Of a DNA stretch of 64,000 bases, positions 16,416-33,543 are shown in pieces (the stretch's first letter is position 1; every line of letters begins with the position of its first letter). The DNA lies in the NCBI GenBank assembly GCA_041559015.1, contig JBFFED010000005.1:2577-66576 (forward strand). The letters are read 5' to 3'. The DNA is from Thermoplasmata archaeon (GTDB taxonomy: Archaea; Thermoplasmatota; Thermoplasmata; UBA10834). The translations under genes and the position numbers were made by a program. The notes under the pieces are model-generated. The model was not told the DNA's origin and did not search any database. It saw only the letters and a program-made list of their open reading frames with translations.

Positions 16416-16416
16416 G

Positions 16417-16995
16417 ATGGCCGAGGTGGAGAAGGTCTTCATAGGCGGCCTGCACGAACAGCTCACCGAGGAGAAGGTCATAGAGGAGAAGGACCTGGAC
16501 CGTGACTTCGCGAAGGAGATCAGGAAGTACGGCGGGAAGGACGTCATGACCTGCCTGCAGTGCGGGAACTGCACGGGCGTGTGCCCAATCAGCCTCAAAA
16601 TCGACTACAAGACCAGGAACATCATCAAGTGCTGTCAGTTCGGGCTCAAGAAGTACACCCTCGGGACGCAGTGGGTATGCGCGACCTGCTACCGCTGCTA
16701 TGAGCACTGCCCCGCGGACCTGAACCCCGCGGAGGTCATGATAGCGCTCAGGCACATAGCGATCAGGGAGGGCATCATACCGCCGTTCGTGAAGACGGCC
16801 GCGACCAACCTGGTCAGGTATGGCCAGAGCGTCAGGCCTGACCCCGAGATTGACAAGATAAGGGTCGAGCTCGGTCTCAAGCCGGTCCATGCGGACGCGG
16901 ACCAGCTGAGGGCTGTTGTCAGGGAGATCCAGACCCTCGTCCACGCGACCAAGTACGACAAGCTCATAGGCATACTGGAGGAGGTGAAGGTGTGA
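16417..16995 (+). CDS. hdrC: Heterodisulfide reductase subunit C
   Basis: 192 aa with two ferredoxin-type motifs, CLQCGNCTGVCP and CATCYRCYEHCP. Starts 1 nt after the hdrA stop. Confidence 0.85.
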   Translation: MAEVEKVFIGGLHEQLTEEKVIEEKDLDRDFAKEIRKYGGKDVMTCLQCGNCTGVCPISLKIDYKTRNIIKCCQFGLKKYTLGTQWVCATCYRCYEHCPADLNPAEVMIALRHIAIREGIIPPFVKTAATNLVRYGQSVRPDPEIDKIRVELGLKPVHADADQLRAVVREIQTLVHATKYDKLIGILEEVKV

Positions 16996-17909
16996 ATTCC
17001 TACCTCTACTTCTTCGGATGTGTCATCCCCAACAGGTACCCGGGCGTCGAGTACGCCGTCCGATGGGTCACGGGGAAGAACGGGTTCGATATGGACGTGA
17101 AGAACTGCGAGGAGTTCTCGTGCTGCCCTGTCCCGGGCATATTCTACTCCACGGACAAGGACACATGGCTCCTGCTGGCGGCCAGGAACCTAGTTCTGGC
17201 GCAGCCTGAGAAGAGGGACATCCTGACCGTCTGCAACGGATGCCTCGCCTCCCTGCTGAAGGCCACCGAGTACCTCCAGGAGCCCAAGAACATGGGCAGG
17301 GTGAACCGCATGCTGGCCAAGGTCGGCAAGAAGTACACGGGGATACCTGTCAGGTCTGAGGGCAGAAGGAAGATCTTCGAGCCCGTCAAGGTCAGGCACT
17401 ACATCGAGGTCATGGCGAACGACATCGGCACCGATGCGATCGCCGAGCATACCAAACACCCTCTCAAGAACCTGAAGGTGGCGGTCCACTACGGCTGCCA
17501 CTACCTGAGACCGACCGAGCACGCCCAGTTCGATGAACCCAACGACCCCGTCCTCCTCGACAGGATAGTCGAGGCGTGCGGCGCTGCCAGCGTGGACTAC
17601 GAGGACAAGCACGACTGCTGCGGCGCAGGCGGAGGAGTCAGGTCTCACATAGTCGAACTGGCGAACTCGCTGACACAGGACAAATGCAGGAACATATCGG
17701 CCGCGGGGGCGGACTGCATCGTGACAGGATGCCCGTTCTGCCTCCTGCAGTTCGACAACGCCCAGAAGAGCTTCGCCAAGGACGGCATCCCCGTGATGCA
17801 CGTCTCGCAGTTCCAGGCGCTGGCGATGGGGATAGACCCGATCTCCCTGGGCTTCGACACGCATCACGTATCCGCACACTCACTGCTCAGAAAGATCAGG
17901 GGGTCCTGA
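16992..17909 (+). CDS. hdrB: Heterodisulfide reductase subunit B (two CCG domains)
   Basis: 305 aa. FFGC...SCCPVPG...CNGC and YGCH...DCCGAGGG...GCPFC. GTGA overlap with hdrC. Confidence 0.85.
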   Translation: MNSYLYFFGCVIPNRYPGVEYAVRWVTGKNGFDMDVKNCEEFSCCPVPGIFYSTDKDTWLLLAARNLVLAQPEKRDILTVCNGCLASLLKATEYLQEPKNMGRVNRMLAKVGKKYTGIPVRSEGRRKIFEPVKVRHYIEVMANDIGTDAIAEHTKHPLKNLKVAVHYGCHYLRPTEHAQFDEPNDPVLLDRIVEACGAASVDYEDKHDCCGAGGGVRSHIVELANSLTQDKCRNISAAGADCIVTGCPFCLLQFDNAQKSFAKDGIPVMHVSQFQALAMGIDPISLGFDTHHVSAHSLLRKIRGS

Positions 17910-17914
17910 GAACA

Positions 17915-18367
17915 ATGGAGGCTTCAACCAATGCACCGGCCCAGGAGGCAGCCTACGAGCCGAAGATAATCGCTTTCTGCTGCAACTGGTGCTCGTACGC
18001 TGGCGCGGACCTCGCGGGCACGACCAGGCTGCAGTATCCCCCGAACGTCAGGATCATCAGGGTCATGTGCTCGGGCAGGGTCGACCCCGCATTCGTGCTC
18101 AAGGCGTTCACCCTGGGTGCGGACGGCGTGATTGTAGCAGGGTGCCACCCGGCGGACTGCCACTACATCAACGGCAACGAGAAGACCGCCATGAGGGGGG
18201 ACTTCCTCAAGTCGTTCCTCGAGGACGCGGGCATCGAGAGCCAGAGGTTCAAGGTAGAATGGATCGCGGGCTCGGAGGGGCGCAAGTTCGCCGAGACCGT
18301 CAAGAAGATGGTGGTGGAGCTGGAGAAGCTGGGGCCGATAGGCCAGGAGGCTGCTGCTGATGGCTGA
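17915..18367 (+). CDS. mvhD: MvhD/FlpD-family iron-sulfur protein
   Basis: 150 aa from ATG 17915. IIAFCCNWCSYAGADLAG...RVMCSGRVDP...VAGCHPADCHY. Confidence 0.9.
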   Translation: MEASTNAPAQEAAYEPKIIAFCCNWCSYAGADLAGTTRLQYPPNVRIIRVMCSGRVDPAFVLKAFTLGADGVIVAGCHPADCHYINGNEKTAMRGDFLKSFLEDAGIESQRFKVEWIAGSEGRKFAETVKKMVVELEKLGPIGQEAAADG

Positions 18368-21300
18368 GAAGAAGGTCGGCGCCGTCCTCGTGGTCGGCGG
18401 AGGGCCCGCGGGGATGCAGGCTGCCCTCGACCTGGCGGACTCGGGCTACAAGGTGTACATCCTCGAGACCACAGCGAGCATAGGCGGCACGATGGCCCAG
18501 CTGGACAAGACCTTCCCGACGAACGACTGCTCGATGTGCATCCTCTCCCCGAAGCTCGTCGCGACGGGCAGGCACGAGAACATCACCATGCTGACCCATG
18601 CCGAGCTCAAGAAGATCGAGGGCAAGGCGGGTAACTTCAAGGTCACACTCAACAGGCATTCCAGATACATAATAGAGGAGAAGTGCACGGGCTGCGGAGT
18701 GTGCGCCGAGCACTGCCCTGTCGAGGGGGTCAACTCGTTCGACAGGGAGATGGCCCCCGCGAAGGCCATCTACGTGCCCTTCCCGCAGGCCGTCCCACTC
18801 GTGTACACGATCGACCGGGGGCTATGCATCGGCTGCGGCGTGTGCGAGAAGTTCTGCGAGGCCACGGCCATCCAGTACTCCCAGAAGCCGGACAAGGAGG
18901 AGGTCCTGGAGGTCGGGGCAGTCATACTCAGTCCCGGGTACGATGTCTTCGAGGCTGGCAGGAAGGTGGAATACGGCCATGGCACGTTCCCGAACGTGCT
19001 GACGAACATCGAATTCGAGAGGATGCTCAGCGCCTCCGGCCCGACTGAGGGGCACGTCATAAGGCCGTCGGACGGCGATGTGCCGAAGAAGATAGCGTTC
19101 ATACAGTGCGTCGGATCGAGGGACTCGCAGACCGGCAACACCTACTGCTCTTCGTACTGCTGCATGGCCGCCCTGAAGCAAGCGGTCATAGGCCAGGAGC
19201 ATGTCCCCGGCCTGCAGACGAAGATATTCTTCATGGACACCCGGGCGTTCGGGAAGGAGTTCGAGGAGTACCTGTTCAGGGCCGAGAACGAGTACGGGGT
19301 CCAGGTGCTCAGGAACACGAGGGTGCCCAAGGTCCAGGAGGACCCCAGCACGAACAACCTCATGATATACTACCACGAAGGCCCCGAGATCAAAGAGGAG
19401 GTCTTCGACATGGTGGTGCTCTCGGCGGGGGCGCAGCCTCCGGCGTCCGGAGCTGCCGCAGCCAAGATCATGGGCATCGAGCTCAACAAGTTCGGCTTCT
19501 GCGAGACTGACGACCTCAGTCCTGTGGAGACTTCGGCGCCAGGGATCTTCGTTTGCGGGGCGTTCTCCGGCCCGAAGGACATCCCCGACTCCATCGCGCA
19601 GGCCAGCGGCGCTGCGGGCAAGGTGGCCGCGCTACTCTCAGAGGAGAGGGGGAAGCTCGTCGCGAAGAAGGAGTACCCTCCCGAGAAGGACGTCTCGGGA
19701 AAGCCCCCCAGGATAGGCGTGTTCGTGTGCCACTGCGGGATCAACATCGGTTCCGTGGTGAACGTCCCGGAGGTCATGGAGTATGCGAAGTCCCTCCCCA
19801 ACGTGGCGTACGTCGAGAGGAACCTCTACACTTGCTCTGGGGACACCCAGAAGAAGATCAGGGAGGTCATCGACAAGCACGACCTGAACAGGGTCGTGGT
19901 CGCGAGCTGCACGCCCAGAACTCACGAGCCGCTCTTCCAGAACACGATCCGGGAGGCGGGCCTGAACAAGTACCTGTTCGACATGGCCAATATCAGGGAC
20001 CAGTGCTCCTGGGTGCACAGGCTGGAGCCAGAGAAGGCCACACAGAAGGCGAAGGACCTTGTCAGGATGGCCGTCGCGAAGGCGGCCAAGTTGGAACCCC
20101 TGCCGCAGCCCAAGATACCTGTCACGCACGCAGCCCTCGTCATAGGGGGAGGGCTCAGCGGCATGGCCGCCGCGCTCGAGATAGCCAAAGCCGGCTTCGA
20201 GGTCCATTTAGTGGAGAAAGACAAGGCCCTCGGAGGGCACCTCAGAAGGATATACCACACCCTAGCGGGCATCGACCCGCAAGAGGCTTTCGAGAGCCTC
20301 AAGAAGGAGATCTCGGAGAACAAGAGGATCAAGGTGCACCTCGGGACTGAGGTGGCCGAGGTCAAGGGGTACATAGGCAACTTCGAGTCCACCCTGAAGA
20401 ACGGCGAGAAGGTCAAGCACGGGGCTGTCGTGGTCGCCACGGGCGGCATCGAGTACGAGCCCAAGGAATACGAGTTCGGCAAGCACAAGAAGGTCATCCG
20501 GCAGACCGAGCTCGGAGAGCTGCTCCATAGCAAGAAATTCAAGGCCGAGAACGTGGTCATCGTGCAGTGTGTCGGCTCCAGGAACGAGGAGCACCCGAAC
20601 TGTTCCAGGATATGCTGCTCGACCGCCCTGGCCAACGCAGTCAAGATCAAGAACGATCACCCGGAGACAAACGTGTTCGTCCTCTACAGGGACATCAGGA
20701 CCTACGGCTTCGCGGAGGAGCACTACAACGAGGCTTCCAGGCTGGGCGTCACCTTCCTCAGATACGACCCCGCCTCCCCGCCGAAGGTCACCTCGAAGGG
20801 GGACGACCTCTTCGTGGAGGTGGACGAGGTCTTCATCGAGCAGGCGGTCCGCATCAAAGCGGACTATCTGGTGCTCAACGCAGCAGTACATCCGAACCCC
20901 GACAACCAGGAGCTGGCCAAGCTGCTGAAGGTCCCGCTCAACAAGGAGGGCTTCTTCCTGGAGGCGCACATGAAGCTGAGGCCGGTCGACTTCGCCACCG
21001 ACGGGATATTCCTGTGCGGTCTGGCGCACTCGCCCAGGCTCATAGGCGAGAGCGTCTCCCAGGCGCTCGCGGCCGCCGCCAGGGTCAACACGGTCCTGTC
21101 GAAGGAGTTCATCGAGGCCGAGGGCGTCGTCAGCGTCGTCGACGAGGACAAGTGCATCGCCTGCGGCAGATGCGAGGAGATCTGCGAGTACGGCGCGCCG
21201 AGCCTGGTGGAGGTCAGGCCAGGCGTCATGAAGTCCAAGATCAACGAGGCGCTCTGCAAGGGCTGCGGGTCGTGTGCGGTCGCATGCTGCTCGCGGGCCA

Positions 21301-21392
21301 TCAGCCCGAAGCACTTCAAGACCGAGCAGATACTGACGATGATTGAGGCGTGCCTCAAGAATGACCTCGAGCAGGAGGAGGCGAGGACATGA
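18360..21392 (+). CDS. Tandem (double) HdrA-like flavoprotein
   Basis: 1010 aa. Unit 1 (aa 1-~425) has the FAD fingerprint, TFPTNDCSMC and the inserted ferredoxin. A linker follows. Unit 2 has an HdrA N-domain-like Cys module (PRIGVFVCHCGIN), a second FAD fingerprint (LVIGGGLSGMAAALEIA, no TFPTxDC) and a C-terminal 2x[4Fe-4S] (CIACGRCEEICE, CKGCGSCAVACC). Confidence 0.85.
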   Translation: MAEKKVGAVLVVGGGPAGMQAALDLADSGYKVYILETTASIGGTMAQLDKTFPTNDCSMCILSPKLVATGRHENITMLTHAELKKIEGKAGNFKVTLNRHSRYIIEEKCTGCGVCAEHCPVEGVNSFDREMAPAKAIYVPFPQAVPLVYTIDRGLCIGCGVCEKFCEATAIQYSQKPDKEEVLEVGAVILSPGYDVFEAGRKVEYGHGTFPNVLTNIEFERMLSASGPTEGHVIRPSDGDVPKKIAFIQCVGSRDSQTGNTYCSSYCCMAALKQAVIGQEHVPGLQTKIFFMDTRAFGKEFEEYLFRAENEYGVQVLRNTRVPKVQEDPSTNNLMIYYHEGPEIKEEVFDMVVLSAGAQPPASGAAAAKIMGIELNKFGFCETDDLSPVETSAPGIFVCGAFSGPKDIPDSIAQASGAAGKVAALLSEERGKLVAKKEYPPEKDVSGKPPRIGVFVCHCGINIGSVVNVPEVMEYAKSLPNVAYVERNLYTCSGDTQKKIREVIDKHDLNRVVVASCTPRTHEPLFQNTIREAGLNKYLFDMANIRDQCSWVHRLEPEKATQKAKDLVRMAVAKAAKLEPLPQPKIPVTHAALVIGGGLSGMAAALEIAKAGFEVHLVEKDKALGGHLRRIYHTLAGIDPQEAFESLKKEISENKRIKVHLGTEVAEVKGYIGNFESTLKNGEKVKHGAVVVATGGIEYEPKEYEFGKHKKVIRQTELGELLHSKKFKAENVVIVQCVGSRNEEHPNCSRICCSTALANAVKIKNDHPETNVFVLYRDIRTYGFAEEHYNEASRLGVTFLRYDPASPPKVTSKGDDLFVEVDEVFIEQAVRIKADYLVLNAAVHPNPDNQELAKLLKVPLNKEGFFLEAHMKLRPVDFATDGIFLCGLAHSPRLIGESVSQALAAAARVNTVLSKEFIEAEGVVSVVDEDKCIACGRCEEICEYGAPSLVEVRPGVMKSKINEALCKGCGSCAVACCSRAISPKHFKTEQILTMIEACLKNDLEQEEART

Positions 21393-22984
21393 CGGACAAG
21401 AAGTTCGACCCCAACATAGTCGCTTTCTGCTGCAACTGGTGCTCCTATGCCGGGGCGGACCTGGCAGGGGTCTCGAGGATGCAGTACCCCCCGAACGCCA
21501 GGGTCATCAGGGTCATGTACTCAGGCAGAGTCGAGCCATACTTTATACTTAGGGCGCTCGAGCTGGGCGCGGACGGAGTGCTCGTGGCGGGGTGCCACAT
21601 AGGAGACTGCCACTATCTGTCCGGGAACGTCGAGGCCGAGAAGAGGATGAAGATGACCGAGGAGGTCCTCGACACGCTCGGCCTGGGCAGCAAGAGGATG
21701 CGCCTCGAGTGGATATCTGCCTCCGAGGGCCAGAAGTTCGCCCACACCATGAAGGAGTTCACCGAGCAGATCAAGGGCCTAGGGGCAAACCCGCTCCCGA
21801 AGCCACCGGCGAAGAAGGTCGGCGATCCGGCGTCAATCAAGGAGGCAATGAACAGGATCATAGAGGACACCGGTGCCTTCGACTGCGTCGAGTGCGGCAA
21901 GTGCACGACCGTGTGCCCCGTGGCCAAGTACAACCCCGACTTCGCCCCCAGGACGGTCGTCCTGAAGGCGTCGGAGGGGATAGTAGAGAACGTTGCCAGC
22001 AACAGGGACGTCTGGACTTGCGTAACGTGCGAGCAGTGCAACGCGATGTGCCCATACAAGGTCGACTATTCTGGGTTCATAAGGGGCATGAGGGCCGAGG
22101 CGGTCCAGTTCGACAACGCCCCCGCCTGCTCCCAGGGAGGTCTCATCCATGCAATCATGCGCATCCAGGCGAACAGCGACCTCAAGCAGAACAGGTTGGG
22201 GTGGCTCACGCCGGACCTCAAGGTCGCCGACAAGGGGGAGGTATTCTACTTCACCGGGTGCGTCGCCTACTTCGATGCCATCTTCAAGGAGCGCAACCTG
22301 GGGCTGTCTGGCATACCCCAGTCGGTAGTAAAGATAATGAACAAGGCCGGTGTTACTCCGGTCGTCAGCAACGACGAGGTTTGCTGCGGGCACGACCTCA
22401 ACTGGACGGGGGACGAGGAAGGGCTCAAGAAGCTGATGAAGAAGAACGTCGACCTGGTCAAGGCCTCAGGGGCCAAGAAGGTCGTGTTCTCGTGTCCCGA
22501 GTGCCTGCGGACGTTCAACCTCGACTACCAGGACTTCCTGGGTGACTTCGACTTCGAGATGCAGCATGTGTCGGAGTACGTGGACGACCTCATCCAGGAG
22601 GGCAAGCTGAAGTTCAAGAAGGGGTCCAAGAAGGTCACGTTCCAGGACTCCTGCAGGCTGGGGAGGCACATGGGGATCTACGACCCACCCAGGAACGCCC
22701 TCAAGGGGGCGGATGCCCAGGTGGTGGAGATGGAGAACACCAGGGACAAAGCCGTATGCTGCGGTGTCAGCGCCTGGGCGACCTGCGACGAGATATCCAG
22801 GAAGCTCCAGATCGACAGATTCAAGGAGGCAAAGAAGACCGGCGCTGAGTGCCTCGTCACCGGCTGCTACAAGTGCCTCATACACCTCAGCTGCGCGGTC
22901 GAGAACAAGACCCAGGTCCCCAAGGAGCAGATCGACATACCGATCAAGGACCTGAGCGTGTTCATCGCGGAGGCTCTGGAATGA
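21389..22984 (+). CDS. MvhD-HdrC-HdrB fusion protein (MvhD domain + 2x[4Fe-4S] + two CCG domains)
   Basis: 531 aa. N-terminal IVAFCCNWCSYAGADLAG...GCHIGDCHY, then CVECGKCTTVCP / CVTCEQCNAMCP, then FTGC...VCCGHD...SCPEC and DSCR...VCCGVSA...GCYKC. ATGA overlap with the upstream gene. Confidence 0.85.
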   Translation: MTDKKFDPNIVAFCCNWCSYAGADLAGVSRMQYPPNARVIRVMYSGRVEPYFILRALELGADGVLVAGCHIGDCHYLSGNVEAEKRMKMTEEVLDTLGLGSKRMRLEWISASEGQKFAHTMKEFTEQIKGLGANPLPKPPAKKVGDPASIKEAMNRIIEDTGAFDCVECGKCTTVCPVAKYNPDFAPRTVVLKASEGIVENVASNRDVWTCVTCEQCNAMCPYKVDYSGFIRGMRAEAVQFDNAPACSQGGLIHAIMRIQANSDLKQNRLGWLTPDLKVADKGEVFYFTGCVAYFDAIFKERNLGLSGIPQSVVKIMNKAGVTPVVSNDEVCCGHDLNWTGDEEGLKKLMKKNVDLVKASGAKKVVFSCPECLRTFNLDYQDFLGDFDFEMQHVSEYVDDLIQEGKLKFKKGSKKVTFQDSCRLGRHMGIYDPPRNALKGADAQVVEMENTRDKAVCCGVSAWATCDEISRKLQIDRFKEAKKTGAECLVTGCYKCLIHLSCAVENKTQVPKEQIDIPIKDLSVFIAEALE

Positions 22985-23244: not shown

Positions 23245-25947
23245 ATGGAGAAATCAGTGATGGTGATTGGTGGTGGAATTGCTGGCATCCAGGCCGCCTT
23301 GGACCTGGCCGAGAAGGATATCAAGGTGAGCCTAGTGGAGAAGTCTCCAAGCATCGGCGGGAGAATGGCCCAGTTGGACAAGACATTCCCGACGAACGAC
23401 TGTTCGATCTGCATACTGGCGCCCAAGATGGCGGACTGCTACAACCATCCCAACATCGATGTGCTGACCTACTCTGAAGTTGAGGAGGTCAGTGGGAAAG
23501 CTGGCGATTTCAAGGTGAAGGTCCTGAGGCGGTCAAGATTCGTCGATGAAGAGAAGTGCACTGGCTGTGGAGACTGTTTCAAGGTGTGCCCTGTTGCGCT
23601 CCCGAACGAGTTCGACATGGAGATGAGGGAGCGAAGGGCGATCTTCATGCCCTTCCTGCAATCAGTTCCGCGCGTGGCCGTCATAGACCGACAGGGACAG
23701 GCGCCATGCTCGAACGAGTGCCCCGCGGGACTCAGCGCCCAAGGATATGTCGCGCTGATACGCGCCGAGAAATTCAAGGAAGCCCTGGACCTGATAAGAA
23801 GGACTGTGCCGCTCCCATCTGTGTGCGGTCGCATATGTCACCATCCATGCGAGGAAGGCTGCAACAGAAAGGATGTCGACCAGCCAGTCGCAATCGCCGC
23901 GTTGAAATCATTCGTCGCTGACCATGTTCGCGAGCAAGGCGAAGACAAACCAACGCCCCCTGAGACGAAGCGCAAGGAGAAGGTCGCAGTGGTGGGAGCA
24001 GGGCCTGCGGGTCTTGCGGCGGCCTATCGCCTCGCCCTAAGAGGTTTCAACGTCAAGATACTTGAAGCCACATCCAAGCCTGGCGGCATGCTGTGGTGGG
24101 GGATTCCAGACTACAGGCTTCCGAAGGAGATACTCACCGCCGAAGTGGAGTACCTTCTCAGTCACGGCATCGAAGTGGAGTACGGAAAGACCGTGGGCAA
24201 GGACGTCACCCTGGAGCAGCTGCAGAAGGAATACGATGCTGTCTTCCTCGCAATAGGAGCGCACAGGAGCCTGAAACTTGGCATCCCGGGGGAGGACTTG
24301 AACGGAGTTATGCATGGGGTCGATTTCCTACACAAGCTTGTTGCCAAGGAGAAGGTCACGATAGGCAAGAAGGTCGCTGTGATTGGAGGAGGAAACGCCG
24401 CAATGGATGCAGCCAGAACAGCCCTCCGCTTGGGTTCCGAAGTCACTGTGCTGTACAGAAGAACCAGGAACGAGATGCCTGCCATCGCTTCCGAGATCGA
24501 AGGCGCGGAAGAGGAGGGGATCAAGTTCGAGTTTCTGGTGGCGCCTGTTCGCATTGTTGGCCAGGGAGGCAAGATCTCCGGAATCGAGTGCCAGAAGATG
24601 AAGCTGGGAGAACCTGACAAATCGGGAAGGGCCAGGCCTGTTCCAATCGAGGGCTCGGAGTTCACAATTGAGGTAGACACAGTCATCCCTGCGGTAAGCC
24701 AGGAGCCAGAGATTGAGAAGCTGGGCGCGAAGTCCCTTACAGCGACGAAATGGAAGACCATTGAGGTCAACCCCGGCAACCTCAGCACTAATGTCAAGGG
24801 TGTCTTCGCAGGGGGAGACGCTGTCACTGGACCAGCCTCGGCAGTCGAAGCGTTCGCTGCGGGAAACAAAGCCGCAATCTACATAGAGAGATTCCTGGAC
24901 GGCAAGAGCATAGAGCCTGATCCTGAGGAGAAGGACGAACACATTGTCACTCTGGAGGACATCAAGGCAAGGATGAAGGGGGATATCACTAAGACCGAGC
25001 GTGTGCAGAGACAGAAGCTCGCACTCGAGAAACGCAGAACCACCTTCGGCGAGGTCGAGAAGATCCTCACGAAGGAAGAAGCCCTCAAGGAGGCATCTCG
25101 ATGCGTGAGCTGTGGGCCATGTTCTCGATGCGAGGCGTGTGTCCCTGTCTGCGGTCCCAAGTGCATTGACTACAACATGAAGGATCAGGTCCTGACACTC
25201 AACCCTGCTGCTATCATCGTCGCGACTGGGTTTGACATATGGGATCCGACTTCGTCGACAGAATACGGATACCGAAGGTACCCGAACGTGTTCACGGCAA
25301 TGGAGTACGAGCGGATGATAAATGCCGCGGGACCTACCGGAGGACACATAGTGAGGCGTTCCGATGGCGAGCATCCGAAGAAGATGGCTTTCATCCAGTG
25401 CGTAGGCTCGAGAAATCCGCAGGTGGGGCATCCATACTGCTGCGGCGTGTGCTGCATGCACTCCACCAAAGAGGCCATGCTGGCTAGGGAACACTACGAG
25501 GACGTCAACTCGACGATCTTCTACAAGGACCTCAGAGCGTGCGCGAAGGGCTTCTTCGAGTACGTCGAGAGGGCGAAGAACGATTATGGCGTGAAGTTCG
25601 TGAACTCGGATGCGACCGTGCAGGAAAATCCCGACACGCACAATCCAATCGTAGTCTTCGATATCGGGGGGAAGCAGCAATCCGAGGAGTTCGACGCTGT
25701 GATTCTCGCCACGACGCTGATACCCAGAAAGGAGACAATCGAACTGGCGAAGATACTTGGCTTGAAGCTCGATGAGTTCGGGTTCCTGGAGTCCGCAGAC
25801 AGGATCTTGGAACACGGGACGACGCAGGTTCCCGGGGTATTCTTGGCCGGATACTGCGCCGGACCTGCAGATATCCCCGAATCTGTTGCCCAGGGCTCGA
25901 ACGCGGCTGCCAAAGCGGTCGAAGTGCTAGTATTGACAGGAGCGTGA
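23245..25947 (+). CDS. HdrA-like flavoprotein (unit-1 type) with an inserted GltD/NfnB-like NAD(P)H-binding module
   Basis: 900 aa. HdrA start (VIGGGIAGIQAALDLA, TFPTNDCSICIL, CTGCGDCFKVCP). Then aa ~150-615 resemble glutamate synthase small subunit (CGRICHHPCEEGC, VAVVGAGPAGLAAAYRLA, VAVIGGGNAAMDAART, FAGGDAV). Then it returns to HdrA (KMAFIQCVGSRN...CCGVCCM...GVFLAGYCAGPADIPES). Confidence 0.85.
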   Translation: MEKSVMVIGGGIAGIQAALDLAEKDIKVSLVEKSPSIGGRMAQLDKTFPTNDCSICILAPKMADCYNHPNIDVLTYSEVEEVSGKAGDFKVKVLRRSRFVDEEKCTGCGDCFKVCPVALPNEFDMEMRERRAIFMPFLQSVPRVAVIDRQGQAPCSNECPAGLSAQGYVALIRAEKFKEALDLIRRTVPLPSVCGRICHHPCEEGCNRKDVDQPVAIAALKSFVADHVREQGEDKPTPPETKRKEKVAVVGAGPAGLAAAYRLALRGFNVKILEATSKPGGMLWWGIPDYRLPKEILTAEVEYLLSHGIEVEYGKTVGKDVTLEQLQKEYDAVFLAIGAHRSLKLGIPGEDLNGVMHGVDFLHKLVAKEKVTIGKKVAVIGGGNAAMDAARTALRLGSEVTVLYRRTRNEMPAIASEIEGAEEEGIKFEFLVAPVRIVGQGGKISGIECQKMKLGEPDKSGRARPVPIEGSEFTIEVDTVIPAVSQEPEIEKLGAKSLTATKWKTIEVNPGNLSTNVKGVFAGGDAVTGPASAVEAFAAGNKAAIYIERFLDGKSIEPDPEEKDEHIVTLEDIKARMKGDITKTERVQRQKLALEKRRTTFGEVEKILTKEEALKEASRCVSCGPCSRCEACVPVCGPKCIDYNMKDQVLTLNPAAIIVATGFDIWDPTSSTEYGYRRYPNVFTAMEYERMINAAGPTGGHIVRRSDGEHPKKMAFIQCVGSRNPQVGHPYCCGVCCMHSTKEAMLAREHYEDVNSTIFYKDLRACAKGFFEYVERAKNDYGVKFVNSDATVQENPDTHNPIVVFDIGGKQQSEEFDAVILATTLIPRKETIELAKILGLKLDEFGFLESADRILEHGTTQVPGVFLAGYCAGPADIPESVAQGSNAAAKAVEVLVLTGA

Positions 25948-25953
25948 TGATGA

Positions 25954-27825
25954 ATGGCAGAGACCAACAAGGACGTCAAGACGGAGGAGCCGAGAGTCGG
26001 CGTCTTCATTTGCCACTGTGGATCGAACATCGGGGGATTCGTCGATGTCAAGGCGGTGACGGAGTATGCCAAGACACTTCCTGGGGTAGCATACGCCACC
26101 GACAACCTCTACACATGCGCCGAAGATGGCCTCGCCTCCATCAGAGCAGGGATCAAGGAACACAACCTGAACAGGGTAGTGGTTTCGAGTTGCACTCCTC
26201 GAACCCATGCTCCGCTGTTCCAGGGAACCTGCGAGTCGGCAGGTCTGAACAAGTACCTGTTCACGTTCGTGAACATCAGAGAGCATTGCTCCTGGGTGCA
26301 CATGAAGGAACGAGACAAGGCGACCAGGAAGGCAAAAGACCTCGTCCGGATGGGAGTCGCAAGGGCGAGGCTGCTGCAACCTCAGATTGAGACGAAGGTC
26401 GAAGTCACGCCCGTCGGACTCGTGATAGGAGGGGGCGTTTCTGGCATGACCGCGGCCCTGTCGCTGGCCGACATGGGGTTCACCGTGCATCTCGTGGAGA
26501 GCGAGGCGAATCTCGGCGGACTTGTCAAGGACCTCCACAGCCTTACGCTGACAAGCAAGAGCGCTTCCGACACGATCAGTCCACTGATTGAGAAGGTCAA
26601 GGCTAGCAAGAACATCGTGCTTCATCTGAGTTCCCAGGTCAAGTCGGTCGAGGGGTTCATAGGCAACTACGACATCGTCATCGCGAGCAAGGACGGCAAG
26701 GAGAGCGAGTCGAAGGTCGGCACGATAATCGTCGCCACCGGGGCTCAGGCCCTGATTCCGGAAGGGCTGTTCGGCTACAAGGAATGCCCGAATGTCGTGA
26801 CGCTTACCGAGTTCGAAGAGCTGGCGAGGAAGAGGGCACTTCCGAAACCCCTGAAGAACATCGCCTTCATACAATGTGTCGGCGCACGAGGACAGAAGGT
26901 TACGTACTGCTCAAGGATCTGCTGTAATGTGGCCATAAAGAGCGCGGTCAATCTCACGGACAATGTCGACAACATCCTTGGGGTGGCTGAAGAGAAGGGC
27001 GAAGTTGTCGAGGCGGCGCCCGCAGAGGAGAAGAAGGTGGCGCCGGAAGAAGGTACGGAACGCAGACGGAGAAGGCGCGGCCGAGACGAAGAGGGACCTT
27101 CCTCGGAGGCGAGGGCTGCCCCGTCCGGAAGAGTGGACATCACTGTATTCAACCGGGACGTCATGGCCTACGGGATCGAGCACGAGCTCGACTACAACAA
27201 GGCCAGGGAGAAGAGAGTCAAGTTCGTCAGGTATCTCCCCGAGAATGCGCCAAAGGTCTTTATGGATGGCGACAAGCTTACAGTCGGGTACTTCCATGAG
27301 ACTCTGAAGATCGAGAGGACCATGCAGGCCGACATGGTTGTCCTGGCAACACCGCTGGTCTCTCGGCCTGATGCCCCGCGGCTCTCGCAGATGCTGAAGG
27401 TGCCCATCGGACAAGAAGGGTTCTTCCAAGAGGCACATGTGAAGCTCAGACCTGTCGATTTCGCGACGGACGGCATCTACGTGTGCGGAACTTGCAGGGG
27501 CCCGGCAGACATACCAGAGTCCGTGTATCAGGCAGCTGCTGCAGCATCAAGGGCCGCCATACCAATGGCGAAGGGATACGTCCAGGCAGAGGCCCTGACG
27601 CCCGCAGTGGATGAAACGAAATGCACGGGATGCGGAACATGCATCGAAGTCTGCCCTTACGGCGCGCTGAGAAAGAACGACAAGGGCATATGCGAAGTAA
27701 TAGTGGCAGCCTGCAAGGGCTGCGGCTGTTGTGGCGCGACCTGTCCGGAAGCGGCCATAGCGATGACGCACTATTCGGATGCGCAGCTGCTTGCTGAGGC
27801 CAAGGCAGCTCTGGAGGAGGTGTGA
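25954..27825 (+). CDS. HdrA-like protein (unit-2 type): N-domain Cys module, degenerate FAD domain, C-terminal ferredoxin
   Basis: 623 aa. PRVGVFICHCGSN, LVIGGGVSGMTAALSLA, IAFIQCVGARG...CSRICC, CTGCGTCIEVCP / CKGCGCCGATCP. Same frame as the upstream gene, separated only by three TGA codons. Confidence 0.85.
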   Translation: MAETNKDVKTEEPRVGVFICHCGSNIGGFVDVKAVTEYAKTLPGVAYATDNLYTCAEDGLASIRAGIKEHNLNRVVVSSCTPRTHAPLFQGTCESAGLNKYLFTFVNIREHCSWVHMKERDKATRKAKDLVRMGVARARLLQPQIETKVEVTPVGLVIGGGVSGMTAALSLADMGFTVHLVESEANLGGLVKDLHSLTLTSKSASDTISPLIEKVKASKNIVLHLSSQVKSVEGFIGNYDIVIASKDGKESESKVGTIIVATGAQALIPEGLFGYKECPNVVTLTEFEELARKRALPKPLKNIAFIQCVGARGQKVTYCSRICCNVAIKSAVNLTDNVDNILGVAEEKGEVVEAAPAEEKKVAPEEGTERRRRRRGRDEEGPSSEARAAPSGRVDITVFNRDVMAYGIEHELDYNKAREKRVKFVRYLPENAPKVFMDGDKLTVGYFHETLKIERTMQADMVVLATPLVSRPDAPRLSQMLKVPIGQEGFFQEAHVKLRPVDFATDGIYVCGTCRGPADIPESVYQAAAAASRAAIPMAKGYVQAEALTPAVDETKCTGCGTCIEVCPYGALRKNDKGICEVIVAACKGCGCCGATCPEAAIAMTHYSDAQLLAEAKAALEEV

Positions 27826-27828
27826 GAA

Positions 27829-28650
27829 GTGACCGACAAGCATGCCACACACAGCAGTTCTGACGCTGCCGCGAAGGGCGAATGGGAGCCGAAGGTGATA
27901 GGGTTTCTGTGCAATTGGTGCTCATACGCGGGGGCGGACCTCTGCGGCGTGAGCCGATTCCAGTATCCGACGGACATACGCCTGATCAGGGTCATGTGTT
28001 CCACTCGAATCAGCCCGCACCTTGTGCTGAACCTGTTCGAGGCGGGAGCCGACGGGATCCTCATAGGCGGATGCCACCTGAACGACTGCCATTACATATC
28101 AGGCAACTTCCACACGGAGAAACGCGCAAGACTCATGAACAAGCTGCTGGAAATGACCGGAATAGAGCCGAAGAGACTGAGGCTCGAGTGGGTCTCGGCC
28201 TCCGAGGGTGAGAAGTTCTCCAAGGTCGTCACCGAATTCACCGACACTGTCAAGAAGCTCGGGCCCAGCAAGGTCGGGAAAGATGATCTCCTGAGGGCGA
28301 AGGCGACCGCCGCCGACGAGGCATCTGAGACCTTCAGAATCAAGGCCCTTGTTGGAAAGGAGTTGAATCTGGAGACAAAGGGCAATGTATACGGTGACAC
28401 ACGGAGCAAGGATGACCTCGAGAAGATCGTGGACAAGTCGGCTGAGGAAGAGTTCGAGAGAAGTCTCATAATTGAGCTCTCGAGGCAGCAGCCAAGATCC
28501 GTAAAAGATCTCAGCAAGATAATGGGCGTTCCAGCAGATCAGGTCCTGCGGCATATCGTTGTGCTGAGGCAGAGGAACCTGATCTCGATGGACCACCCGG
28601 AAGGATTCACGCCAACATACAGGGCAATTGAGATAGGAGGTGAGCAGTGA
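27829..28650 (+). CDS. MvhD-domain protein with a C-terminal winged-helix-like extension
   Basis: 273 aa, GTG start 3 nt after the upstream stop. VIGFLCNWCSYAGADLCG...GGCHLNDCHY. The last ~120 aa end in an HTH-like segment (RSVKDLSKIMGVPADQVLRHIVVLRQRNLI). Confidence 0.8.
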   Translation: MTDKHATHSSSDAAAKGEWEPKVIGFLCNWCSYAGADLCGVSRFQYPTDIRLIRVMCSTRISPHLVLNLFEAGADGILIGGCHLNDCHYISGNFHTEKRARLMNKLLEMTGIEPKRLRLEWVSASEGEKFSKVVTEFTDTVKKLGPSKVGKDDLLRAKATAADEASETFRIKALVGKELNLETKGNVYGDTRSKDDLEKIVDKSAEEEFERSLIIELSRQQPRSVKDLSKIMGVPADQVLRHIVVLRQRNLISMDHPEGFTPTYRAIEIGGEQ

Positions 28651-31600
28651 TGGCTGCTACGGACACGATAGGCGCGGTTATGGTCGTTGGAGGAGGCATA
28701 TCGGGCATGCAGTCCGCCCTCGATCTGGCAGATTCGGGGTACAAGGTATACCTCATCGAGAAGCAGCCGAGCATCGGTGGCACCATGGCCCAGCTGGACA
28801 AGACTTTCCCCACGAACGACTGCGCGATGTGCATCATGGCGCCCAAGCTCGTTTCCACGGGCAGGCACCACAACATCGAGCTTGTGACGAATGCAGACGT
28901 CGCATCTGTCGAAGGTGAGGCCGGGAACTTCAAGGTGACCGTCAAGCAGAGGGCTTTCAGGGTCGATCCCACCAAGTGTACTGGATGCGGCAGCTGCGCG
29001 CAGAAGTGTCCCATCGAGACCGACGACGAGTACAATGAGGGGACCAAGGTCAGGAAGGCGATATATGTGCGTTATCCACAGGCTGTTCCACTCGTGTATT
29101 CGATCGACCTCGACAAGTGCATAGGCTGCGGGATATGCTCGGAGGAATGCAAGGCCAAGGCCGTCGTCTACGACCAGAAGGAGAAGACCATGGAGATCAG
29201 GGTCGGCTCGATAATCGTCTCTCCTGGCTTCGACGAGTTCAATGCGAGGCTCAAGGGGGAGTACGGTTACGGCGTCTACAAGAACGTCGTATCCAGCATC
29301 GAGTTCGAGAGGATGCTCTCGGCGACAGGTCCGTACTTCGGCACTGTGATGAGACCTTCTGACGGCGACATCCCGGAGAAGATAGCATTCATACAATGCG
29401 TCGGATCAAGGGACGAGCACGTCGGCCACGAGTACTGCTCAAGCGTTTGCTGCATGTACTCCATCAAGGAGGCCGTCATAGCGAAGGAGCATGGAGGGAA
29501 CATCAAGCCAACCATCTTCTTCATGGACATGCGGGCATTCGGGAAGGAGTTCGACGAGTACTACAACCGGGCTCAGAACGAATATGGCATCAGGTTCATC
29601 AGGTCGAGGGCAGCCGGCATCACAGAGGACCCGAAGACGAAGAACCTCAAGGTGAAGTACACCGATGGTGGAGAGCCAAAGGAAGAGGAGTTCGGCCTCG
29701 TCGTGCTTGCTGTGGGTCTCGCACCTCCTGCGGATTCGGAGAGCCTGAGCAAGGCGATGAAGTTCGGGCTGAACGACGACGGTTTCGCTCAGACGAATGT
29801 GTTCTCTCCTCTCGACACCTCGAGGCCTGGGATATTCGTCAGTGGCGCTTTCTCGTCACCCAAGGACATCCCGATGACCGTCGCCGAGGCGTCTGGCGCG
29901 GCGGCGAAAGCGTCGACACAGATCGCGAGCGCGAGGAACACGCTCGTCACCAAGAAGGAGTACCCGGCCGAGATCAGCGTCGAGGGGCAGGAACCCCGGA
30001 TAGGAGTGTTCGTCTGCCACTGCGGCATCAACATAGGAGGCGTCGTGAAGGTACCCGAGGTCATGGAGTACGCCAAGACGCTCCCGAATGTGGTGTACGC
30101 AGAGCAGAATCTGTACACCTGCTCCCAGGACACACAGGAGAAGATCAAGGAGAAGGTGAAGGAGCTCAAGCTGAACAGGGTGATAGTTGCCTCCTGCACG
30201 CCGAGGACGCACGAGCCGTTGTTCCAGAATACCATCAGGGAGGCCGGACTCAACGCCTACCTGTTCGAGATGGCCAATATCAGAGACCAATGCTCGTGGA
30301 TACACATGCACGAGCCCAAGGCCGCCACGAAGAAAGCCAAGGACCTCGTCAGAATGGCGGCAGCTAAAGCAAGGCTTCTGGAACCTCTGGAGAACCTGAC
30401 GCTCAAGGTGAACCAGACTGGGCTGGTTGTCGGAGGAGGTGTGGCGGGGATGATGGCGGCACTTGAGATCGCGAAACAGGGTTTCAAGGTGCACCTGGTC
30501 GAGAGAGAGAAGGAGCTCGGAGGGAACGCGCTCAAGCTGCACTACTTGCCATCTGGAGATGACCCGACCGCGTTCGTGAAGGACCTGGAGAAGCAGGTCA
30601 CATCGAATCCGAACATAACGGTCCACAAGGGCGCGAAGATACTGAGCATCGACGGCTATGTCGGCAATTTCAAGACGAAGCTCGGCGACGGCAAGGAGCT
30701 GGAGCATGGAGTGGTCATCCTCGCGATTGGAGGACTGGAGTACAAGCCCGAGGGCGAGTACCTCTACGGCAAGAACAAGCAGGTGACGACCCTGCTCGAG
30801 TTCAAGGAGCAGCTCCACAAGGGCCACGCCAAGGGCAACGAGTATGTATTCATCCAGTGTGTCGGCTCCAGAGAGGAAGGACATCCCAACTGCTCAAGGG
30901 TATGCTGCACGGGCACGATGACAGCGGCGATAGAGATCAAGAAGCGCGACCCGAAAGCGAAGGTCTTCGTCCTTTACAGGGACATCAGGACCTACGGCTT
31001 CAGAGAGAAGTACTACAAGGAGGCAGCCAGGCTCGGAGTGACCTTCATAAGATTCGACGACGCCGTCAAGCCGAAGGTGGAGGATAAGGGCGGGAAGATC
31101 ACAGTGCATGTGAAGGATGAGGACACTGGCAAGGATGTGGTCCTGAAGCCGGACCACCTCGTACTGGCGACAGGCACCAGGGCACAGCCGGACGCTGGGG
31201 CACTCGCTCCGATGTGCAAGGTGCCCCAGACGAAGGAGGGTTTCTTCCTTGAGGCGCACATGAAACTGCGGCCGGTGGACTTCGCAACCGATGGTATATT
31301 CCTCGCAGGGTTGGCACACGGCCCCAAGTTCATTGACGAGAGCATCTCCCAGGCTCTGGGTGCAGTCGCAAGAGCGGGGACAATCCTGTCCAAGACCGAG
31401 CTGGAGGCTGAGGGGATAGTGGCCAAGATCGACGAAACCTTCTGCGATGGATGCGGGATATGTGTCCCGGTCTGCGAGTACAAGGCGCTCGAGGTCATCC
31501 CTGACAAGAAGGATCCGGAGAAGAAGCTCGTGGAGGTCAATGTAGGGCTCTGCAAGGGCTGCGGCGCGTGTGTGGGCACGTGCCCGTCCGGTGCCCTGAC

Positions 31601-31697
31601 GCAGATGGGCTACAAGGACGAGCAGATATACGCGATGATAGATGCCATGCTTGAAGAGGAGCATCCCGGGCAGGAGGTGAAGCAGAATGAGCACTGA
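28647..31697 (+). CDS. Tandem (double) HdrA-like flavoprotein, paralogue of 18360..21392
   Basis: 1016 aa, collinear with the 1010-aa protein. VVGGGISGMQSALDLA, TFPTNDCAMC, PRIGVFVCHCGIN, LVVGGGVAGMMAALEIA, CDGCGICVPVCE / CKGCGACVGTCP. Confidence 0.85.
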   Translation: MMAATDTIGAVMVVGGGISGMQSALDLADSGYKVYLIEKQPSIGGTMAQLDKTFPTNDCAMCIMAPKLVSTGRHHNIELVTNADVASVEGEAGNFKVTVKQRAFRVDPTKCTGCGSCAQKCPIETDDEYNEGTKVRKAIYVRYPQAVPLVYSIDLDKCIGCGICSEECKAKAVVYDQKEKTMEIRVGSIIVSPGFDEFNARLKGEYGYGVYKNVVSSIEFERMLSATGPYFGTVMRPSDGDIPEKIAFIQCVGSRDEHVGHEYCSSVCCMYSIKEAVIAKEHGGNIKPTIFFMDMRAFGKEFDEYYNRAQNEYGIRFIRSRAAGITEDPKTKNLKVKYTDGGEPKEEEFGLVVLAVGLAPPADSESLSKAMKFGLNDDGFAQTNVFSPLDTSRPGIFVSGAFSSPKDIPMTVAEASGAAAKASTQIASARNTLVTKKEYPAEISVEGQEPRIGVFVCHCGINIGGVVKVPEVMEYAKTLPNVVYAEQNLYTCSQDTQEKIKEKVKELKLNRVIVASCTPRTHEPLFQNTIREAGLNAYLFEMANIRDQCSWIHMHEPKAATKKAKDLVRMAAAKARLLEPLENLTLKVNQTGLVVGGGVAGMMAALEIAKQGFKVHLVEREKELGGNALKLHYLPSGDDPTAFVKDLEKQVTSNPNITVHKGAKILSIDGYVGNFKTKLGDGKELEHGVVILAIGGLEYKPEGEYLYGKNKQVTTLLEFKEQLHKGHAKGNEYVFIQCVGSREEGHPNCSRVCCTGTMTAAIEIKKRDPKAKVFVLYRDIRTYGFREKYYKEAARLGVTFIRFDDAVKPKVEDKGGKITVHVKDEDTGKDVVLKPDHLVLATGTRAQPDAGALAPMCKVPQTKEGFFLEAHMKLRPVDFATDGIFLAGLAHGPKFIDESISQALGAVARAGTILSKTELEAEGIVAKIDETFCDGCGICVPVCEYKALEVIPDKKDPEKKLVEVNVGLCKGCGACVGTCPSGALTQMGYKDEQIYAMIDAMLEEEHPGQEVKQNEH

Positions 31698-32145: not shown

Positions 32146-32518
32146 TATGTCCTTGAGGGAGGCCAGGGTGCGAGCGGCCCTTAGGACACTCGAGGGCGAG
32201 AGAGTCAGGTGGCTCCTGGGCAAGAAGGGGTCGCTGACATCGACCGGCAATGTCTTCGGCGAGGTGATCACCGAGCCGAGGTATGACTTCATAGTCCAGA
32301 AGGCTGCCGCAATCGAGCTCGAGAGGAACCTACTGCTCCAGGAGATGGAGGAAGGGTCGAGGACCGTCCACGAGCTGCACAGAGCCACGGGCATCGCGAA
32401 GCCCGAGATTGTGAGGCACGTGATCGCGCTCAAGAGGTGGAGGCTGGTAGAGCAGGTGGGCACCAAGGGCCAGTCGCCACAGTACATGGCCGCACCGAGG
32501 AAGAAAGAGGTGAACTGA
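32135..32518 (+). CDS. Small winged-helix-like protein homologous to the C-terminal extension of the 27829..28650 protein
   Basis: 127 aa (GTG 32135/32138 or ATG 32147). TGNVFGE... and RTVHELHRATGIAKPEIVRHVIALKRWRLV align by eye with KGNVYGD... and RSVKDLSKIMGVPADQVLRHIVVLRQRNLI. Overlaps the mvhD stop and ends 2 nt before mvhG. Confidence 0.65.
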   Translation: MVYDMSLREARVRAALRTLEGERVRWLLGKKGSLTSTGNVFGEVITEPRYDFIVQKAAAIELERNLLLQEMEEGSRTVHELHRATGIAKPEIVRHVIALKRWRLVEQVGTKGQSPQYMAAPRKKEVN

Positions 32519-32520
32519 AC

Positions 32521-33537: not shown

Positions 33538-33543
33538 TCAATA

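Follow-up and report, generated by a model that had tools for sequence, protein, structure and literature searches.

We analysed the gene at positions 23245-25947 of a 64,000-nucleotide stretch of the genome of a Thermoplasmata archaeon (contig JBFFED010000005.1, positions 2,577 to 66,576; hereafter, the window), which encodes a 900-residue protein of the HdrL type. The product consists of the thioredoxin reductase (TrxR)-like flavin domain of HdrA with a split inserted-ferredoxin domain that bears an NAD(P)H module. We consider it probable that this protein is the first half of a split HdrA of the Moorella or HdrL type, in which the module would be an entry or exit point for NAD(P)H electrons that does not bifurcate and that connects to HdrA by way of two [4Fe-4S] clusters. 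The gene is a single uninterrupted open reading frame (ORF), and its annotation was based on Pfam, NCBIfam, and PDB matches and on an AlphaFold2 (AF2) model. An earlier note had proposed, from the sequence, a GltD/NfnB-type module in the position of the inserted ferredoxin of HdrA. All the sequence strings quoted in it were found in the 900-residue ORF, and the proposal itself was borne out by the family and PDB matches. Unless another locus is named, nucleotide positions below are those of the window. HdrL with its parts, the two genes after it (HdrA' and mvhD), the MvhD-HdrC-HdrB fusion gene before it, mvhG and mvhA, and the ORF at 599-3913 lie on the forward strand.

Residues 5-150 of the protein matched residues 146-291 of the HdrA from M. 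thermolithotrophicus (5odc_A; E 1e-57), and residues 626-892 matched residues 293-562 of the same chain (E 1.5e-72). The two alignments thus place the module between the equivalents of 5odc_A residues 291 and 293, directly before ferredoxin motif 2, and the family, PDB, and Foldseek matches agreed on this placement. Both C-x2-C-x2-C-x3-C motifs of the inserted ferredoxin domain were present (C105-C115 and C626-C636), with a 475-residue insert between them. Motif 1 (23542-23598; residues 100-118, cysteines C105, C108, C111, and C115; Pfam Fer4 at residues 100-117) aligned to the C-x2-C-x2-C-x3-CP of 5odc_A. Motif 2, located by the same alignment (25120-25164; residues 626-640), has the cysteines C626, C629, C632, and C636, which aligned one-to-one with C293, C296, C299, and C303 of 5odc_A. 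The cysteines of both motifs were invariant in 120/120 homologues (here and below, counts refer to the 120 listed homologues with 48-100% identity). The remainder of the TrxR-like flavin adenine dinucleotide (FAD) domain (25165-25944, aligned within 5odc_A residues 293-562) contains a [4Fe-4S] motif of the form C...YC-x3-CC, formed by the invariant cysteines C719, C732, C736, and C737. It also contains E689 and K742, the equivalents of 5odc_A E356 and K409, both invariant in 120/120 homologues; according to Appel 2021 (cited in PMC9430772), this residue pair is the signature by which HdrA flavins that bifurcate are recognised. The HdrA core superposed on 8rwn_A with a Foldseek template modelling (TM) score of 0.95, normalised by the target. 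The N-terminal and C-terminal domains of HdrA were absent from the 900-residue protein and present in the product of the adjacent gene, and the scores of the protein stayed under the HdrA cut-offs of NF040770 (528.6 versus 1100) and NF041891 (342.7 versus 1300). The AF2 model, built on 46 homologues, had a mean local confidence (pLDDT) of 89.5 and a predicted TM score (pTM) of 0.85. In total, the sequence of HdrL shows two flavin sites.

The boundaries of the insert (23695-25119; residues 151-625) were set by PDB matches and by an insert-free orthologue from locus L013. The coordinates proposed earlier, 23692-25090 (residues 150-616), gave the right location but ended too early, as the true boundary lies about 30 nucleotides further 3', at 25119. 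The insert aligned to residues 101-570 of 9bov_A (E 9e-138), 95-568 of 8oh5_C, and 105-596 of 9n5u_A, as well as to the T. maritima NfnB 4ylf_B (E 3e-100, ~45% identity). Parsing with hidden Markov models detected a GltD-type fold, as the earlier note had anticipated, with matches to Pfam Fer4_20 (9e-20) and Pyr_redox_2 (2e-50) and, above its cut-off of 516 bits, to NCBIfam NF009410 (550 bits); TIGR01316 matched at 1.8e-123, which is below its cut-off. In Foldseek comparisons, the insert reached target-normalised TM scores (TMt) of 0.80-0.82 against the classical NfnB/NfnL/GltD folds and superposed on C. saccharolyticus NfnA (9bov_A) with a root-mean-square deviation of 1.8 A over 481 columns. 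Kinship with GltD and NfnB therefore holds for the module type, but the nearest relatives are the NfnL-like domains of Bfu-type NfnA/StnC proteins (NF009410/NF009454 lineage), which were the best match in both sequence and fold (46-47% identity to 8oh5_C and 9bov_A).

Four parts can be distinguished within the insert. The first is a cluster-binding helical domain that lacks its first two cysteines (23698-23940; Fer4_20 positions 29-112/113) and contains C155, C159-P160, C198, C202, C206, and K221. It is followed by the FAD and NAD(P)H Rossmann domains (23980-24903; residues 246-553; Pyr_redox_2 at residues 246-540) with the motifs GAGPAG (251-256), R291, GGGNAAMD (381-388), Y404-R405-R406, and FAGGD (521-525). 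The third part, defined by alignment and pLDDT, is a linker (24904-24990; residues 554-582) that leads from the classical NfnB end back to the cluster domain; the 4ylf_B alignment stops at residue 554, which corresponds to NfnB residue 462/468, and the linker is modelled with a lower pLDDT of ~78. The last part is a relocated 'N-terminal' segment (24991-25119; residues 583-625), identified by profile matches and by re-pasting against Fer4_20, which contains R586, R597, F601-x-E-V, and E616-A617-x-R619-C620-x2-C623-G-P.

As judged from these alignments, the insert is circularly permuted relative to NfnB, with the N-terminal helix and the first two cysteines moved to the C-terminal end. The linear order of classical NfnB, NfnL, and GltD, in which the F-x-E-V...RC-x2-C segment is N-terminal, was not found; the segment stands after the Rossmann domains. 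An apparent permutation had already been suspected in the earlier note, and the Fer4_20 re-paste, single-sequence, and profile tests agreed on it. In the native order, Fer4_20 matched with 72.4 bits over profile positions 29-112. Pasting residues 585-624 before residue 151 increased the score to 106 bits over positions 2-112, versus 76 bits for the control, one hand-made shuffle of residues 585-624. The relocated segment alone gave 19.7 bits at Fer4_20 positions 2-37, and its single-sequence search matched residues 8-52 of T. maritima NfnB and residues 524-596 of Bfu-type NfnA/StnC. A tail profile of the 43-residue segment, built from 43 homologues and searched against PDB sequences with E up to 1, matched 13 PDB sequences, all but the last of which (a chance-level match, E 0.83) belong to the NfnB/GltD superfamily. 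The matched regions were NfnB 4ylf_B residues 6-42 (E 8e-13), P. furiosus NfnL residues 6-45 (E 8e-10) and the same residues of Xfn, GltD residues 17-53 (E 6e-6), DPD residues 56-83 (E 5e-3), and NfnA/StnC residues 526-594 (E 1e-12 to 1e-9). On its N-terminal side, the insert corresponds to NfnB from residue 45 and to DPD from residue 84, so that the break falls inside C-x2-C-x4-C-x3-CP, between its second and third cysteines. Our literature search, incomplete in coverage, found no paper tying circular permutation to NfnB, GltD, StnC, or NfnL. The explicit description of the module as a circular permutation is a modest addition that may help domain annotation.

The cysteines C620 and C623 of the relocated segment aligned with Cys1 and Cys2 of the distal-cluster motif of NfnB, GltD, and DPD, and only Gly-Pro sets C623 apart from C626 of HdrA motif 2. 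The idea that the module and HdrA share one [4Fe-4S] motif did not hold, as C620 and C623 are the module's own cysteines and C626-C636 form HdrA motif 2, the two being adjacent only. The module appears to have a full ligand set for two clusters, and the ferredoxin domain likewise. In pig DPD, one cluster is bound by C79, C82, C87, and C140 and the other by C91, C130, C136, and Q156. By analogy, the predicted ligands of the distal [4Fe-4S] cluster are C620, C623, C155, and C206, and those of the proximal cluster would be C159, C198, C202, and K221. A text search of the Stn paper supplements for the predicted ligands of the S. ovata protein, C104, C108, C562, and C565, gave no match.

The residues of the module were strongly conserved. 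All its cofactor residues were kept in 120/120 homologues; the seven cysteines, K221, F601, and R619 were invariant, whereas C194 was kept in 83/120. The invariant K221 at the proximal-ligand position aligned with K170 of StnC and with the glutamate of NfnB, and R291 (120/120) aligned with R239 of StnC and R201 of NfnB. Among the proteins compared, a small sample, lysine occurred with the permuted order in 8/8 cases and glutamate or glutamine with the classical order in 5/5. The nucleotide-site motifs were near-identical to those of the NADPH-oxidising C. saccharolyticus NfnA, and the Y-R-R at residues 404-406, found in 114/120 homologues, is the same as in NADPH-using relatives. Motif similarity thus suggests that the nucleotide site is of the NADPH rather than the NADH type. 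In the remaining 6/120 homologues, C-L-E replaces Y-R-R at the predicted 2'-phosphate site, which may mark NADH-specific members.

The HdrA domains missing from HdrL are encoded by the next gene (25954-27825), the product of which, HdrA' (623 residues), matched 5odc_A residues 2-237, 317-412, and 420-646. HdrA' brings both the N-terminal and the C-terminal HdrA domains, carries both the E and K residues of the flavin signature, and is 45% identical to residues 934-1489 of the fused homologue P0013. Fused proteins of ~1470-1565 residues made up 91 of the 120 homologues, the other 29 being ~900 residues long. Since HdrA' matches the second half of a fused homologue and most homologues are fused, we concluded that HdrL and HdrA' (900 and 623 residues) are a split version of the Moorella-type HdrA as described in the literature. 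An Arg-rich low-complexity insertion (ERRRRRRGRDEE) was noticed at residues ~340-395 of HdrA'; the L013 orthologue has it too, and P0013 does not.

The architecture of this protein pair has counterparts in the literature. The name HdrL was introduced in 2009 for an HdrA/glutamate-synthase fusion with an NADH site encoded beside mvhD in D. autotrophicum (Strittmatter, PMC2702500) and was also given to Sfum_0824 of S. fumaroxidans, the cluster products of which were fully detected only with sulfate (Sedano-Nunez 2018, PMC5947623). These papers confirm the earlier note's statement that large HdrA relatives with such a domain have been called HdrL. At the junction, all residues of the window HdrL recur in the homologue P0120 from Desulfobacterota; the published descriptions of HdrL proteins cover neither the insertion point nor the permutation nor an assayed function. 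The HdrA of M. thermoacetica (1487 residues) has as its first part an extra ferredoxin domain plus a TrxR-like domain, split by a GltD domain for FAD and NAD(P)H that also binds clusters (Kremp 2022, PMC9430772). Its second part is an HdrA without the inserted ferredoxin domain, and the E/K signature is present in both TrxR-like domains (PMC9430772). Within the HdrCBA-MvhD-MetVF system, with mvhD and hdrCB alongside, this HdrA oxidises NADH, the activity being one of NADH:benzyl viologen (PMC9430772). By comparison with that description, the same succession of a GltD-interrupted unit and an HdrA without inserted ferredoxin is spread here over two genes, and mvhD (27829-28650) and hdrCB (in the fusion gene at 21389-22984) are likewise co-located with HdrL. 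In contrast to the Moorella system, the window protein is split (900 + 623 residues) and has an archaeal host, its locus has mvhGA and no metVF match, and its nucleotide site looks NADPH-type, versus NADH oxidation in Moorella. HdrA9, HdrA10, and HdrA11 of ANME-1, another archaeal lineage, have by description the same architecture (PMC9012536). Under a refuting condition set in the earlier note itself, the insertion counts as already described, namely in the characterised or named families M. thermoacetica HdrA, ANME-1 HdrA9-11, and HdrL. The HdrA/NAD(P)H-module architecture is already published, the window gene is an archaeal, split, Mvh-linked example of it, and the known picture of the HdrL/HdrA family is unchanged by the locus.

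For the module itself, the closest known systems are those of the NfnA/StnC cryo-electron microscopy papers (8OH5, 9BOV, 9N5U), which describe a GltD/NfnL-like domain with two [4Fe-4S] clusters inserted in a NuoG-like subunit. In these papers, Lys (StnC K170) is a ligand of the proximal cluster, and the flavin of the domain is reported not to bifurcate. The window module shares with these domains the permuted order, the Lys ligand, the conserved Arg, and the insertion into an Fe-S host protein. It differs in its host, HdrA in place of a NuoG/Fdh-like protein with NuoF/NuoE-like BfuBC partners, and in having A165 where StnC has C114. With NfnB/NfnL, GltD, and DPD it shares the fold, the FAD and NADPH sites, the two-cluster helical domain, and a ligand set of seven cysteines plus one further residue. 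Those classical proteins, however, carry the first helix and C-x2-C at their N-terminus and have Glu (NfnL/GltD) or Gln (DPD) as the proximal ligand, whereas here the segment is C-terminal and the ligand position holds Lys. A third host of the permuted module was observed in proteins of ~610 residues from Negativicutes, Oscillospiraceae, Lachnospiraceae, and Bacteroidaceae metagenome-assembled genomes (MAGs; loci L015-L021). These proteins have a cysteine-rich N-terminal domain that resembles, by eye, the Fe-S region of NuoF, followed by the permuted module with a Lys ligand and with the relocated F-x-x-[IV]-E...RC-x2-C segment at the very C-terminus.

In the reading that we favour, NAD(P)H would reduce the module FAD, from which electrons would pass to the proximal and then to the distal cluster, on through the HdrA inserted-ferredoxin clusters to the N-domain cluster of the 623-residue partner, and finally to the HdrA FAD. 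The distal [4Fe-4S] would be the one cluster at which the polypeptide both goes into the module and comes out of it, and this cluster should adjoin an HdrA ferredoxin cluster given that C623 stands two residues before C626. The module flavin would convert two-electron into one-electron transfer without bifurcation, as in StnC/NfnA, and any bifurcation would take place at the HdrA flavin (E689, K742). The earlier label of an NAD(P)H-linked bifurcating HdrA needs to be qualified in this respect, as the flavin of the module's relatives is reported to be non-bifurcating and the HdrA flavin is the better candidate if bifurcation occurs. NAD(P)H would be a mid-potential donor, like NADH in M. thermoacetica HdrA, and it is this Moorella analogy that favours it as the donor. 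Since the module has both the permuted order and the Lys ligand known from StnC/NfnA, its entry flavin is predicted not to bifurcate, and the ligands of the clusters and the route of the electrons can be predicted exactly enough for mutagenesis. The data show the domain architecture, the permutation, the residue conservation, the fold, and the gene context, whereas we infer how the clusters are ligated, which path and direction the electrons take, that NADPH is preferred to NADH, and which partners are physiological.

Several points weigh against this reading. The assignment of cysteines to clusters was derived from cysteine counting and homology to C79 and C82 of DPD and is itself a prediction. 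The only assayed enzyme of the same architecture uses NADH, not NADPH (PMC9430772). The inserted ferredoxin domain of HdrA in methanogens is where low-potential electrons leave for ferredoxin (PMC9012536), so that donor entry at this domain would require the branches to be re-assigned. The locus ends in mvhGA, not metVF, and the Moorella analogy may thus not carry over to the physiological reaction. Finally, the conservation of R291, the flavin N5 protector in NfnB, makes a bifurcating module flavin compatible with the sequence.

The gene neighbourhood bears on the direction of electron flow. HdrL lies in an hdr-mvh supercluster that is preceded by hypB, hypF, and hypA, which further ORFs separate from hdrA. 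It continues with hdrA, hdrC, hdrB, mvhD, a tandem hdrA-hdrA, the mvhD-hdrC-hdrB fusion, HdrL, and HdrA', followed by mvhD, a second tandem hdrA-hdrA, mvhD, mvhG, mvhA, and a maturation protease. The mvhG and mvhA genes at the cluster end (32437-35058) encode the small and large subunits of a [NiFe]-hydrogenase (Pfam Oxidored_q6 and NiFeSe_Hases). The gene order was common to 8 species, the loci being compared from hdrC on, and mvhG/mvhA fell inside the compared stretch in 7/8. As the module is placed on the ferredoxin-reducing branch and the cluster ends in a hydrogenase, the opposite polarity is a live, though clearly less probable, alternative. Here NADP+ would replace ferredoxin as the acceptor on the low-potential branch of HdrA, and the HdrA flavin would bifurcate electrons from H2 to a disulfide (via HdrBC-like proteins) and to NADP+, allowing NADPH formation at low H2 pressure, with confurcation as the reverse reaction. 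In its favour, the module sits exactly on the domain that passes electrons to ferredoxin in methanogen Hdr, and the cluster ends with the hydrogenase and protease genes and has hyp genes upstream. However, the assayed Moorella enzyme oxidises NADH, and most homologues of other lineages have no adjacent hydrogenase.

It was also suggested for the HdrA-NfnB proteins of ANME-1 that they contain two bifurcation sites (Chadwick 2022, PMC9012536). Applied to the window protein, the insert would keep an NfnB-like bifurcating flavin in series with that of HdrA, and the ~45% identity to T. maritima NfnB, the conserved R291, and a PyrK/NfnS-like gene near a homologue in a BRC1 locus would fit such an arrangement. 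We regard it as doubtful that a second bifurcating flavin exists, since the proximal ligand is Lys and not Glu in 120/120 homologues, the closest solved relatives have a non-bifurcating flavin, and no NfnS-like partner was found. Among the scanned cluster ORFs (14319-35599), no match to the NfnS/PyrK-like, NfnA, or GltB-like families was obtained, so that no second outlet for the module flavin was found there. The Lys ligand and the StnC-like features of the window HdrL argue against the two-site suggestion. A glutamate synthase role, considered separately, was rejected for lack of GltB in these ORFs and for the identity of the host protein, which is an HdrA.

The distribution of the gene among related genomes bears on whether the insert is functional and genuine. 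The closest genomes are Thermoplasmata MAGs (~80% identity), and the genomes of 8 other Thermoplasmata species have the insert-bearing gene with its gene order unchanged. An insert-free orthologue of 432 residues is present, with synteny kept, in two sister Thermoplasmata lineages (L013:8001-9299 and L014). It is 75% identical over the flanks and has the junction TIDKENC-x7-C-x2-C-x3-C, with an unusual spacing of motif 2. The insert-bearing and insert-free orthologues in the same operon of sister lineages provide a natural comparison, again a modest addition. Reading the LTKDK of the L013 orthologue as a deletion scar of LTKEE would be speculation with nothing to support it. The GC content at third codon positions (GC3) of the insert, 0.665, is close to that of the gene flanks (0.71-0.73), and we therefore rejected the idea that the insert by itself was recently acquired by horizontal transfer. 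As the host evidently can work without the module in a sister lineage, the insert could in principle be degenerate or purely structural, having lost NAD(P)H binding like the inactive FdhF-like domain of StnC. We consider this very unlikely, as the homologues show little or no variation at both dinucleotide fingerprints, the seven cysteines, the Lys, R291, and F-A-G-G-D, and the AF2 model is confident. That a gltD-like gene was joined to hdrA only through chimeric assembly or faulty gene calling, for which no support was found, can be practically dismissed given the single uninterrupted ORF, an identical protein on record (P0001), the syntenic gene in 8 species genomes, and the insert junction being spanned in ~130 of the 150 top-ranking clusters (50% identity).

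The genes next to HdrL include potential partners. Directly upstream, an MvhD-HdrC-HdrB fusion of 531 residues (21389-22984; Pfam FlpD, Fer4, and two CCG domains) is a candidate disulfide-reducing partner of HdrL. The 260-nucleotide gap between this gene and HdrL, read by eye, contains GGAGG a few bases before the ATG. Downstream of HdrA', an MvhD-like protein of 273 residues (27829-28650; Pfam FlpD 4.6e-51) belongs to the [2Fe-2S]-binding FlpD kind; its FlpD domain covers residues 23-145 and is followed by a tail of ~125 residues without a Pfam match. An mvhD gene followed HdrL in every context examined, and in one Desulfobacterota bacterium and one Methanomassiliicoccales archaeon (L035 and L036) the protein after HdrL is likewise a long FlpD protein, of 251-270 residues. 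The HdrC-HdrB-HdrL-MvhD order, with a fused HdrL, was found in Sumerlaeota (BRC1) and in these two organisms; in the latter two loci a tandem HdrA then follows, and the Desulfobacterota locus is flanked by metV and metF. The BRC1 locus (L033:6586-19755) continues after HdrC-HdrB-HdrL-MvhD with two polyferredoxins, a PyrK/NfnS-like gene, and GcvH, and further with a GlcD-like FAD oxidase, an HdrD-like protein, and a lipoate ligase, a gene content that hints at a possible connection to lipoate or GcvH. In the window, no match to the MTHFR or MetV families was obtained among the ORFs scanned, the scan being not exhaustive, and no NuoF/NuoE-like gene was found in the hdr-mvh cluster.

Further observations concern the cluster as a whole. 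The tandem HdrA-HdrA fusions at 18360-21392 and 28647-31697 (1010 and 1016 residues) are each followed by mvhD. Including the canonical HdrA, HdrL, and HdrA', seven HdrA-type flavin domains are encoded in one 21-kb cluster. The GC3 values of HdrL, HdrA', and the next mvhD (23245-28650) were 0.67-0.73, compared to 0.87-0.90 for the upstream hdr genes (14319-22984) and 0.83 for mvhA, which may point to a separate history of these three genes or to another level of expression. Elsewhere in the window, an ORF of 1104 residues at 599-3913 had no Pfam match at E <= 1e-5.

In many strict anaerobes, the energy economy is governed by Hdr-type flavoproteins, and little is understood of how these are connected to the NAD(P)H pool. 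The locus described here adds an archaeal, split, and hydrogenase-linked case of an NAD(P)H-bearing HdrA. Permuted units of this kind have been found in HdrA, in NuoG-like NfnA/StnC, and in proteins with a NuoF-like domain, and a clean insert-free orthologue exists in a Thermoplasmata sister lineage. As the chain ends of the module would meet at one [4Fe-4S] cluster, we tentatively put forward the idea that the permuted NfnL-like unit is a portable NADPH port, insertable into and excisable from the Fe-S loops of unrelated hosts, although we would not rate this as likely. If true, such a port might make the Mvh-Hdr complex a ferredoxin-independent enzyme that links H2, NADP, and disulfide.

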